From the IMG/VR virus record IMGVR_UViG_3300031539_000008, positions 38,605-102,604 of that record: a stretch of DNA of 64,000 nucleotides, one strand, 5' to 3'. The DNA comes from a virus. The translations under genes and the position numbers were made by a program. Below are positions 33 through 3,775 of the stretch, one piece after another; the first letter of the stretch is position 1; each line of letters opens with the position of its first letter. The notes beneath the pieces are model-generated. The model saw nothing but the letters and a program-made list of their open reading frames with translations, did no database searches and was not told the origin of the DNA.

Positions 33-194
33 ATGAACGACAAGGATGACGACAAGTGCACCTCCGGCTTCCACTGTGGGAACCAGGCCACCGAGCCTCA
101 CCCGTGCCCATACCGTGAGGAGATCAACGATGACAGCGAAACGCTGTGCACCTGCTGCCAAGAATGCGCGCAAGAGTGCGCCAACGACATCTAG
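33..194 (+). CDS. Small Cys-rich phage protein (53 aa)
   Basis: Hand-translated: MNDKDDDKCTSGFHCGNQATEPHPCPYREEINDDSETLCTCCQECAQECANDI; below the ORF track length cutoff. Confidence 0.6.
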   Translation: MNDKDDDKCTSGFHCGNQATEPHPCPYREEINDDSETLCTCCQECAQECANDI

Positions 195-371: not shown

Positions 372-780
372 CGCCTACCGGACCCAATCTCCGCAGCACC
401 AAGAAGCGTGGGACTGGGACGTAATCGTGTACCCAGACGGCTCCATCCGCGTGCTGTGCATCGCGAGCGAGTGCGTGCACAAGTGCAGCTACTCGTGTGA
501 CTGCGCGTCCAAGCCTCGGATTTCGTCACCCATCGTGGACGAGTACGAGAGACCATTGGTCGAGACGCCCTACGCCAACGTGTCGACTGGCGATGCGCGC
601 CATCTGCTGACGACGAGATCCGGCTCGCTGATCTCGGTAATGTCTGGCAAGACCTACCGCCTGCATGGACCCCGGGTCGTTCACCAAGACTTCGCGAGCA
701 CGTCGATCTGGGCGATTTACAGAGATCCGGAGCCACACCCTACGTGGATCCAACGCGTCACGGGGTGGCTGCATGCGTGA
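364..780 (+). CDS. Hypothetical protein
   Basis: 138-aa ORF, GGAGG RBS, overlaps neighbours. Confidence 0.6.
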   Translation: MTDAYRTQSPQHQEAWDWDVIVYPDGSIRVLCIASECVHKCSYSCDCASKPRISSPIVDEYERPLVETPYANVSTGDARHLLTTRSGSLISVMSGKTYRLHGPRVVHQDFASTSIWAIYRDPEPHPTWIQRVTGWLHA

Positions 781-1081
781 GCTGCCCATCGGAGCGACCG
801 GGGGCGCCTGCTACCCCGCCGAGCGCTTTCAGATCCGAGAAGGCTGGCAACTGGAGGTGACTCCGCTCACCCTCGGCCGCGCGCGCATCATCCACACGGA
901 CGGCGTGTCCGTGGACGACTTCTGGTGAATGCCATCCATGGAGGCCGCGGTCGTGGCCTTGGCGGAGTTCATGCTGAACGCTACGATGCTGGAACCCGAG
1001 GGCTGGAACCGATCCAGCTACGGCGCGTGGACACGCAGGCGCCCGAACCTGCTGCGTGAAGAGGAGTACGTCGCACCATGA
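773..1081 (+). CDS. Candidate selenoprotein (in-frame TGA at 926-928)
   Basis: MRELPIG...VSVDDFW-TGA-MPSMEAAVVALAEF...EPEGWNR...RRRPNLLREEEYVAP is one continuous frame; a hairpin follows the TGA. Confidence 0.55.
931..963 (+). promoter_or_regulatory. Bacterial SECIS-like hairpin
   Basis: Stem AGGCCGC (942-948)/GTGGCCT (953-959), loop GGTC (949-952), 21-24 nt after the TGA. Confidence 0.5.
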
Positions 1082-1311
1082 AACAATTTCTCAGTAGTGG
1101 ATTCTCTGGAGCCATGGCCGGTTTTGCCGTCGTCATCTTCGCCGCATTCATCATGTTTCCAAGTGAGGCTCCAAGACGCCCAGATCCAGAGCGCGCTCGC
1201 TTCATGCTGGAGTGCGTCTCCGACCACCAGTACGCTCCGTCGACCTGTGCGGCGATCTGGGAGGGAGAGGACCCCCCTCAGATGGCGAACGGCGTCAAGC
1301 CTGGCTGCTGA
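1078..1311 (+). CDS. Small membrane protein
   Basis: N-terminal hydrophobic helix GAMAGFAVVIFAAFIMF; ATGA overlap with previous ORF. Confidence 0.65.
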   Translation: MKQFLSSGFSGAMAGFAVVIFAAFIMFPSEAPRRPDPERARFMLECVSDHQYAPSTCAAIWEGEDPPQMANGVKPGC

Positions 1312-1339: not shown

Positions 1340-3775
1340 CTACGCCCTCATCATCCGCGATAGCCGCCGCCGCTCACCGGCGCGTCGATCATCGCGACGG
1401 GCACTCTTGCTGCTCCGGCGTTTGCGCGACACGAACCCACCGCCGGTCGCCAGGGCCATGTTGACCCGAGCAAACAGCCTGGTCCCCCAGGCGGAGGGGT
1501 TCTTGAGCCACCCCTCTCGTCGCGCGATAGCCTCTCGCTCCGCCTCGCCCGCCAGCTCGATGCCGCCGAATCCCATGACCGGCGGGGGCTCCGTCGGCGA
1601 GCGCGGCGACTCCTGCCACCGCGGCTTTCCCTCCCACCGCGTCGCGATGGCTTTGATTTGGGCCGCAGAGATGGGGACCCCGATGGCGTCAGCCACCATG
1701 TCGACCACCTTCTTGGTGATTTTCGTGGCGCCAGTTGCGTCCAGCGCATCCAGAAGCGTCCACTCGAAAGACCTGAGCGCGCTCTCGGCTATCCGATCGC
1801 TCACTCCCTCCATGGAGGCCGCCTCGGAGAGCGTGTAGCCGCCCAGGACGGCTTCCACGATTCGGAAGTCACGATGCTCCCGTTTGGCTCGGGCGCGCTC
1901 AGAGAGCACGTCTCGCCCCTTGGGCTCAGGTGGGACTGGCGGCCTACGCGCCATAATCCGCATCATCTCCTGGAACTCGCCCTTGCCGAGAGGCGTGTGC
2001 TTCCTCGGCTTCTTCAGCTTGGGTCGCTTGGCGTACCCAAAGGCTGGAGGAGGAGGGGCGACCGGAGCAAAGGTAGATGGCGGAGCCATCGCAGGAAACT
2101 TTCCACGCGGAAGCAAGCGCCTCCCTGGCTTGACGAGTTTCTCCTTGGGCCCACGGATCGGCTCGGTGACCCCCATGAGCTTGAGGGTCTCAGCCATCAG
2201 CTCCTCAGTGGGCTCCATGCCCTCCGCCGTGGCCAAGGTGCGCACCATCTTGCGGGTCCGCCGGTATTCCGCCAGCTCCGGATCCATTGGACCGCCCTTG
2301 CGCGCCTCGATCGCGTACCGAATCTCCTGGGGCATCCCGCGGCGCTTACGCGTGTACTTGCGCGTTCTCAGGATCCTGGGCGGCTCCGTCTCCCCGGCAG
2401 CGATGGCGGTGAAGACGGCGTCGCGTTCCTTGTCTGTGCCGAGGGCGGCAAACACTGCGTCATTGAAGCGGGCCTGAGCGAGAGCCGCAGCGCGCCCTTG
2501 CCGCTTGTCGATCCTTTGCTGGCGGAAACGTAGCTCGGACCAGAAATCGTGCACGTCGTGGGCCAGGAGGTCGGCCAGGAGCGCTGAGTCCATGGCCTGA
2601 CGCGATGCCTCGGTCCCGAGCAGCTCCCACAGCGCAGTACGCAGGCGCTGCTCGGACCAACTGGTCATCTTCCCGGGTTCGCGCCCCTCCTTCCGCATCT
2701 CCTCACGCAGCTCCATCACCTTCGCCATGAAGGCATCTGGATCACTGCGGAGTAGGTTTTTCAGGTGCTCGACCAGTTTCAGCTCGGCCGTGACTGCGGC
2801 ATCCGAATGAGACTTGCTGCTCGCCCCCGCCGCGTCCTTCACTCGGGTGATCTCTTCGGCGAGCGCCGCCTCGGACACCGTGCGTGAGGTCCCCGTTGGC
2901 AGCGCCGCCTGCATGGTGGCCAGGGTCACGAAGTCGGCGATCTGCTCGGCCTCGATGGGCGCCTGGTCGGCAGCCACCTTCTCGCCGTACTTCATCATCG
3001 CCTTGACACCGCCCTTGCGATAGTGACCGATGTACTCCTTGGGCTCCGCCCCACGCATCATTTGCATGGCGAATGAGGCTACGTCGTTCAGCTCCTTGAC
3101 GAGGTTGCGCCCGTCCAGCACTGGTAGGCGCCTGGTCCTGGTGAGTTCTCGCTCTCCTCGTGTCAGCTCCTGATGCAGCCTCTTGACCCTCTGGTCGTAG
3201 GGAGCGTCCATCCCAGGCGTAAGCAGCATCTTGGTAGCGGCGATGGCCCAGGTGAACTCGGCAGAATCCTTTGCCGCCTCGACGACCACCTTCTTCACCT
3301 CTTCGACGGTCTCTGGCTGTATCTCCTGCTGCTCGATACGCCTGGTGATCCGCTCCTCCATCGGCACCTTGAGCGGACCAGCGCGCTTGATGATCTTTGC
3401 GACGCCAACATGGGTGATCCCCACGATGCGCGCGATCTCGCGGTTGCTCATTCCTTCCGCGCTGAGCGCCAGGATCTTCTCTTGAGTCTCCCTGGGAGTC
3501 TCTCGTCCTTTCGTCGTTCCGCGTCCCTTTTTGGTCAGGAGTTTGCGAATCGTGTCCGGCTTGAGCCCGGTCGCCTTTGAGATTTCTCCGTGCTTCCGAC
3601 CATCATCGTGCATCTTGAGGATCAGCGCGGTTGTCCTCTCGTCCGGGTTGGCCATGGCCATGCTGGCCACTGCCGTGCTCAGCCCTAGCAGTTCCCCACG
3701 CGTCGGCGACCGCGCGGCGGACCAGTAGGTGGTGCGCGCGACTCGGCACTTCGATGGTTTCTTGGCCTTTGCCAC
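1340..3775 (-). CDS. Large basic protein with three HTH-like motifs and C-terminal tag-like helix
   Basis: GRKHGEISKATGLKPDTIRKLL; GMSNREIARIVGITHVGVAKII; GYTLSEAASMEGVSDRIA; ends RRRLSRMMRA. Confidence 0.8.
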   Translation of the reverse strand: MAKAKKPSKCRVARTTYWSAARSPTRGELLGLSTAVASMAMANPDERTTALILKMHDDGRKHGEISKATGLKPDTIRKLLTKKGRGTTKGRETPRETQEKILALSAEGMSNREIARIVGITHVGVAKIIKRAGPLKVPMEERITRRIEQQEIQPETVEEVKKVVVEAAKDSAEFTWAIAATKMLLTPGMDAPYDQRVKRLHQELTRGERELTRTRRLPVLDGRNLVKELNDVASFAMQMMRGAEPKEYIGHYRKGGVKAMMKYGEKVAADQAPIEAEQIADFVTLATMQAALPTGTSRTVSEAALAEEITRVKDAAGASSKSHSDAAVTAELKLVEHLKNLLRSDPDAFMAKVMELREEMRKEGREPGKMTSWSEQRLRTALWELLGTEASRQAMDSALLADLLAHDVHDFWSELRFRQQRIDKRQGRAAALAQARFNDAVFAALGTDKERDAVFTAIAAGETEPPRILRTRKYTRKRRGMPQEIRYAIEARKGGPMDPELAEYRRTRKMVRTLATAEGMEPTEELMAETLKLMGVTEPIRGPKEKLVKPGRRLLPRGKFPAMAPPSTFAPVAPPPPAFGYAKRPKLKKPRKHTPLGKGEFQEMMRIMARRPPVPPEPKGRDVLSERARAKREHRDFRIVEAVLGGYTLSEAASMEGVSDRIAESALRSFEWTLLDALDATGATKITKKVVDMVADAIGVPISAAQIKAIATRWEGKPRWQESPRSPTEPPPVMGFGGIELAGEAEREAIARREGWLKNPSAWGTRLFARVNMALATGGGFVSRKRRSSKSARRDDRRAGERRRLSRMMRA

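Follow-up and report, generated by a model that had tools for sequence, protein, structure and literature searches.

The window analyzed here covers the rightmost 64 kb of an IMG/VR virus record of 102.6 kb, which has a G+C content of 62% and a CheckV completeness of 71%, and in which ARAGORN found no tRNA genes. At the left end of the window, small plus-strand genes with translational coupling form a run. Within this run, positions 773 to 1081 (+) hold the gene that is the subject of this study, whose extent as a single unit of ~102 codons is drawn from family alignments and from a one-domain AlphaFold model. It overlaps its neighbours at both ends, by its start codon (ATG at 773) with the stop of the upstream ORF (364-780) and by its stop codon with the start of the downstream ORF (1078-1311). 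The N-terminal coding part (773-925, +; residues 1 to 51) ends in DDFW and corresponds to three beta strands of the predicted domain. It is followed by an in-frame UGA (926-928, +) at residue 52, the proposed selenocysteine codon, where TGA and Cys codons alternate among relatives, and then by the C-terminal coding part (929-1078, +; residues 53 to 102), which carries EPEGW.R and RRRP, the most conserved motifs of the family. The terminal TGA (1079-1081, +) is an ordinary stop here. Two further ORFs frame this region. A Cys-rich 53-aa ORF at 33-194 (+), with CxxC-like spacings and high third-position G+C, heads the run of coupled genes and possibly encodes a zinc-binding protein, and an 811-aa ORF on the minus strand (1340-3775), with N-terminal HTH_29 and HTH_23/Sigma70_r4_2 matches and a long unannotated remainder, converges on it.

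The first-pass annotation had described two short ORFs that are in frame and parted only by the TGA at 926-928, and reading of the window sequence confirmed this arrangement. Third-codon-position G+C amounts to 0.85 before the TGA and 0.80 after it in the same frame, and the parts on both sides look coding in one frame. An ATG (929) directly adjoins the TGA, from where the frame runs for 50 codons to the TGA at 1079-1081, and a second ATG follows three codons later at 938. Both ATG codons are peculiar to the subclade of the window, and in the window residues 53-54 are M-P in place of the usual Y53-D54. Direct reading revealed no Shine-Dalgarno-like sequence before either of them. Gene callers give the C-terminal part as a separate protein (P0002). 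A reassigned genetic code was also considered and rejected: this gene itself terminates at TGA, and no other stop is as frequent among the long ORFs of this genome (25/49); with TGA serving as an ordinary stop, reassignment does not explain the UGA at 926-928.

An exhaustive HMMER search with the read-through protein returned 39 representative clusters, about 20 of which are full-length across the site, while 16 are short and three start at M56. The 16 short ones, of 35-53 aa, are N-halves: they match residues 1-51, and W51 is the last residue of each. The three C-half clusters are P0002, which is the window's own annotated C-half, and P0004 and P0033, known here as proteins, which keep the A-V-A-A-L peptide that encodes the hairpin described below. 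As the closest relatives of the window, the 16 N-half and two C-half clusters were compared at the protein level, and they stand outside the TGA counts given below. Full-length members read D.W-C-Y ... EP.GW.R ... RRRP, so that the motif given in the first-pass annotation (DDxW-C-Y...EPxGWxR...RRRP) turned out to be correct. A profile search extended the family to 666 database proteins at E <= 1e-5, all of them unnamed or "hypothetical". The expectation that homologues would have Cys at the codon in question was likewise borne out: position 52 is Cys in 132 of 141 full-length homologues, the others having Asp (5), Gln (2), Trp (1), or Gly (1). This Asp, Gln, Trp, and Gly minority of 9/141 (P0003, P0038, P0022, P0027, P0034, P0039, L010, P0007, and P0018) indicates that the residue is not indispensable for the fold, and in some of these members its role may have been lost or changed.

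Family genes are also carried by cultured jumbo phages of Caulobacter, Brevundimonas, and Sinorhizobium. The tblastn matches to proteins of the Caulobacter (Bertelyvirus), Brevundimonas, and Sinorhizobium phages cover up to 95% of the query and share the motifs W-C-Y and EP.GW.RHP...RRR, but differ from the window gene in having Cys instead of UGA at position 52 in all three genes that were translated (Caulobacter BL47, Brevundimonas Kabachok, and Sinorhizobium Phosso). All of these proteins are annotated as "hypothetical". When the window's own protein (P0001) was used alone, tblastn against cultured phages and a word-indexed protein search gave no match, and three viral scans with P0001 and the alignments A3 and A8 found no relative. 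Pfam gave no match for the read-through protein, its halves, its neighbours, or any of the 64 aligned family members. A link to phrog_24748, itself of unknown function, holds through the family only: 23 of the 64 aligned members match it (best E 1.1e-11), whereas P0001 alone has no match at E <= 1. The DnaB-like helicase of the window's phage has 23-28% identity to the matches listed, and this phage is distant from all cultured phages.

To read codon 52 at the DNA level, 72 loci were collected from viral, metagenome, and genome collections with GEPEGW[HM]R or slight variants of it as the peptide pattern. Since this pattern lies 20-30 codons downstream of codon 52, the collection is blind to the codon itself. 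Codon 52 was readable at 70 places, the window included, and it is TGA in 45, TGC or TGT in 24, and GAC in one. The 45 TGA loci represent 36 distinct sequences, with the window counted. Neither TAA nor TAG occurs at codon 52 among the 70 readable loci, which means that all stop-bearing loci (45/45) have TGA, while the terminal stops of the same TGA-form genes comprise 28 TGA, six TAA, and one TAG. The comparison of homologues that had been suggested as a check on the selenocysteine reading thus came out in its favour, with TGA in every stop-bearing relative and a Cys codon in 24 of the 70 loci. Beyond the TGA, the motifs GEPEGW.R and RRRP are intact and in the same frame in the TGA-form loci, and the sequence that typically follows the internal TGA is Y-D-x-P-x-A-A-V-(V/A)-A-L, which contains no Met. 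A maximum-likelihood tree, built by a quick method from few columns, had too little resolution for a count of Sec/Cys switches; parsimony places 8-9 on it, of which only one is forced by well-supported branches.

Two deviations among the TGA forms may be recorded here. In one relative (L026:1584-1640, Ga0126370_10093124) the TGA is followed by a TAA that replaces the conserved Tyr codon, with the rest of the gene and its GGUC hairpin intact; the copy is probably broken or misassembled, and it is the only case of a frameshift or further stop among the other 35 distinct TGA-form sequences. In four loci (L037, L040, L041, and L043), Tyr replaces the otherwise invariant Trp51 just before the UGA.

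A SECIS-like hairpin lies downstream of the UGA at 941-960 (+), and is supported by its fold, by covariation, and by a covariance-model match. Its stem (941-948/953-960) has 8 bp including two G-U pairs and begins 12 nt after the UGA, and its GGUC loop (949-952) occupies +24 to +27 with the U of UGA as +1. This is the hairpin that had been proposed from the sequence, with its GGUC loop 21-24 nt past the A of the TGA, and it falls within the range of about +20 to +30 at which a small apical loop containing G-U is looked for in such elements. In a scan of the whole 102.6-kb record, TGA 926-928 was the only TGA codon that is flanked on either side by 35 or more open codons and also followed, at +18 to +33, by the NGUN loop of a hairpin with 6 bp or more. 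The folding energy of the window hairpin is unremarkable (z -1.35 to -1.64). In the same test the authentic E. coli fdhF element scored z +0.10, so this statistic does not discriminate.

We then asked how the hairpin behaves among relatives, for which purpose the 36 distinct TGA-form sequences could be aligned gap-free from -6 to +51. When the stem of the window is mapped onto this alignment, paired cells make up 78.5%, and covariation scores 0.356, as compared to 0.156 +/- 0.019 for shuffled partners, with none of 500 shuffles reaching the observed value, and to at most 0.136 when the partners are slid. Two pairs that join third codon positions illustrate the pattern: pair 27-36 occurs as GC (14), UA (7), CG (5), and AU (2), and pair 24-39 as GC (10), CG (9), AU (4), and UA (3). 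At a position where G-C predominates, the window itself has a compensated C-G pair. Sequences that do not fit the register mostly still form a hairpin in the same place, with G-U in a loop of 5 or 6 nt, and across the 36 TGA forms the conservation of the G and U at +25/+26 is 90% or higher. RNAalifold gave no consensus structure on the same 36-sequence alignment, and the case for the hairpin relies on the pair counts.

The hairpin features also distinguish the TGA forms from the Cys/Asp forms. A GGUC loop is present in 28/36 of the former and in 0/22 of the latter, and Val60, whose codon supplies the G-U of the loop, in 34/36 versus 2/22. On average, 5.1 of 6 core pairs can form in the TGA forms as compared to 3.4 of 6 in the Cys/Asp forms, with mean folding energies of -14.3 and -10.6 kcal/mol, respectively. 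The hairpin is thus conserved and covarying among TGA-bearing homologues, and because its features go with the UGA forms, we conclude that the RNA element accompanies the UGA and places constraints on synonymous sites as well as on the peptide encoded there. A covariance model that was built without the window found its best match in the 64-kb window at 941-968 (21.6 bits), although the same model also matches Cys-form genes through coding homology and therefore does not separate the two classes. Rfam returned nothing relevant for window positions 700-1200.

The likeness to E. coli fdhF that had been pointed out earlier, namely a GGUC apical loop at a similar distance, holds on the fdhF sequence itself. 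When folded, fdhF from the K-12 record presents the same GGUC loop at +22 to +25, so that the loop of the phage element is 2 nt further from the UGA, and the upper stem of the phage element is without the bulged U of the fdhF prototype. More generally, the phage gene has in common with bacterial selenoprotein genes read by SelB that the in-frame UGA is at a Cys position and that the hairpin is inside the coding sequence, where it constrains the encoded peptide as it does in other bacterial genes with a SECIS within the ORF. It differs from them in being phage-borne, in having no known family function, and in that the decoding machinery would come entirely from the host. An ordinary host selenoprotein gene with the loop motif of the phage element was also encountered: a formate-dehydrogenase-like gene of a Planctomycetota MAG (L078; G003:C59:943-4707, minus strand) contains a single in-frame TGA (...CAAT-U-HAPT...), and a stem of 7 bp downstream of it carries a GGUCU loop at +22 to +26. 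This MAG is SelB-positive and also holds one TGA-form phage contig.

AlphaFold2, run with the 64-sequence alignment, predicted one compact domain (pLDDT 84, pTM 0.74) with three strands, a helix, and three strands in this order. Residue 52 is located inside strand 47-53, which crosses the UGA position, and a 51-residue termination product would consequently be only half a domain. No fold match stands out for this model: the best hits were E 0.32 for PDB by sequence profile, E 0.41 for Foldseek against PDB, E 0.077 for Foldseek against BFVD (an uncharacterised protein), and Z 4.8 for VIA-align against PDB representatives, and the ESM Atlas contained only unnamed, mostly viral clusters. Clustering of gene neighbourhoods identified no gene that is conserved beside the family gene. 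Since position 52 is normally Cys in the family, the Sec/Cys residue is probably the functional centre of the protein, redox-active or otherwise nucleophilic. By analogy with other families that have Sec/Cys pairs, the single conserved Cys/Sec beside W51 and Y53 could be a reactive thiol or selenol, and the protein may have a new fold and a selenol-based activity.

Altogether, we assign a probability of roughly 0.8 to the view that positions 773-1081 are one gene for a ~102-residue single-domain phage protein in which the UGA of codon 52 is decoded as selenocysteine. As judged from comparative sequence data, its product is most likely a selenoprotein of a bacterial virus. The selenoprotein reading of the first-pass annotation is supported by these data, in particular by the Cys/TGA pairs, the exclusive use of TGA, and the covariation of the hairpin, alongside the conserved frame and the one-domain model. 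In the proposed mechanism, the hairpin at 941-960 would act as a bacterial SECIS that presents its GGUC tetraloop at +24 to +27. The host SelB-GTP-Sec-tRNA(Sec) complex would bind this hairpin and deliver Sec when the UGA at 926-928 occupies the ribosomal A site. In a cell that is not Sec-competent or is short of selenium, translation would stop after the 51-residue fragment. It would follow from this mechanism that the protein is tied to the selenium status of the host, as had been suggested earlier.

The same data that show the UGA being read through could also be accommodated by read-through that does not involve selenium, in which the UGA is decoded by a near-cognate tRNA (Trp), or by a tRNA-Cys that reads UGA and is brought in by a SelB-like factor, and the hairpin stimulates this event. 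A precedent is protein A1 of the RNA phage Q-beta, for which a UGA is read through at low frequency with insertion of a standard residue (Trp), and for which the short and the long product are both functional. The phage gene studied here resembles A1 in that a UGA would be read through into a longer product, but its homologues have Cys, its hairpin is of the SECIS type, and its short product is half a domain, which also argues against a scheme with two useful products. In line with selenium-free read-through, position 52 is Trp in one homologue and Gly in another, and minor tRNA species for Cys and Sec whose structures are unusual have been described from bacteria (Mukai et al., PMC5389517). 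However, the aligned residue is Cys, and not Trp, in 94% of the full-length homologues, and in loop sequence and spacing the hairpin matches a SelB-binding element, so that we regard this explanation as improbable.

A split into two small genes, with the TGA as a true stop and the second half re-initiating at ATG 929 or 938, at least in the subclade of the window, is the one rival that has specific support in the window itself. There, the TGA and an ATG are adjacent, a detail to which the first-pass annotation gave no weight and which by itself would suit two coupled genes as well, M-P replaces Y-D after the TGA, the neighbouring operon genes are likewise coupled by overlapping stop and start codons, and N-halves (16 clusters) as well as C-halves from M56 (P0002, P0004, and P0033) have been called separately. 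Against this stand the missing ribosome-binding site before 929 and 938, the single domain that is predicted to be made by both halves, and the fact that TGA, GGUC loop, and one compensated stem pair are all retained in the window, just as the C-halves of the subclade keep the hairpin-encoding A-V-A-A-L peptide. Elsewhere in the family, only one of the other 35 distinct TGA forms has a start codon that adjoins the TGA on its downstream side. In 21 of 35 distinct TGA forms, one has to go 24 codons or more downstream, past the conserved helix, to meet an in-frame ATG, GTG, or TTG, and three forms lack ATG altogether, which implies that the C-terminal part cannot be made alone. Moreover, a neutral split would not hold TGA in 45/45 loci while the terminal stops vary. 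We therefore consider two separate genes very improbable. An artefact or decay, meaning a sequencing error in the contig or a pseudogene, is hardly credible: a broken relative such as L026 might hint at it, but the same TGA is found in 44 other loci from independent samples, and apart from L026 the frame is intact in the other distinct sequences and the downstream peptide is strongly conserved.

Decoding of the UGA as selenocysteine requires a source of the machinery. None of the five viral records that were searched, this one included, contains a tRNA-Sec above the Rfam threshold, and a phage-encoded tRNA-Sec was rejected for these records. The phage must thus rely on its host, and with no Sec machinery of its own it would depend on a Sec-competent host and on selenium. 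TGA-form contigs are held by three MAG bins, and in two of these, assigned to Gemmatimonadota and Planctomycetota, SelB and tRNA-Sec were detected above the NCBIfam cut-off and the Rfam gathering score, respectively. The third bin (3.2 Mb), which holds the same contig as the Gemmatimonadota bin, is without SelB and tRNA-Sec. Indeed, two accessions from one study (L068, CADEFQ010000013.1, and L069, CADEFN010000011.1) are essentially the same ~83-kb TGA-form contig placed in two MAGs that are labelled as different phyla, Proteobacteria and Gemmatimonadetes, with SelB and tRNA-Sec only in the Gemmatimonadetes bin. The contig in the Planctomycetota bin is an 81-kb, complete-looking phage genome with terminase and tape-measure genes and with no housekeeping families in the ten ORFs scanned, and it looks like a complete free phage genome and not an integrated prophage. 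Host assignment via these bins is weak and only suggestive, since one contig is a complete-looking phage genome and the ~83-kb contig was binned into two phyla.

Virus-encoded selenoproteins appear in reviews only as the captured glutathione peroxidases of poxviruses, namely molluscum contagiosum virus and fowlpox virus (PMC8310308). As proposed for the phage protein, these are encoded by the virus with a UGA for Sec that is decoded by host machinery, and the fowlpox SECIS is in the coding region (PMC8310308). They differ in belonging to animal viruses, in deriving from captured cellular GPx genes, and in using the eukaryotic SECIS/SBP2 system (PMC8310308), whereas the family described here belongs to bacterial viruses, has an element of the SelB type, and is seemingly phage-borne with no cellular counterpart identified. 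In the searchable literature we found no report of a selenoprotein of a bacteriophage. The mechanism would be the known bacterial one, and the family and its location in phages appear to be new as far as can be searched.

Considering the family as a whole, we think it likely that this is a widespread family of small phage proteins that has repeatedly swapped Cys and Sec at its single key residue, with a SelB-type SECIS of its own and with decoding machinery borrowed from the host. In annotation, the gene is broken up by gene callers, and its halves appear as two "hypothetical proteins", each some 50 residues long. The large size of the family (666 proteins) and the presence of Cys forms in cultured phages of Caulobacter, Brevundimonas, and Sinorhizobium make its function open to genetics. 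If our reading is true, some phages of soil and sediment bacteria make a selenoprotein with host machinery, and production of this protein would be tied to the selenium supply of the host and to hosts that can decode Sec. Such phages would thereby exploit the Sec-decoding of their hosts, which would bear on host range and on how selenium affects infection.
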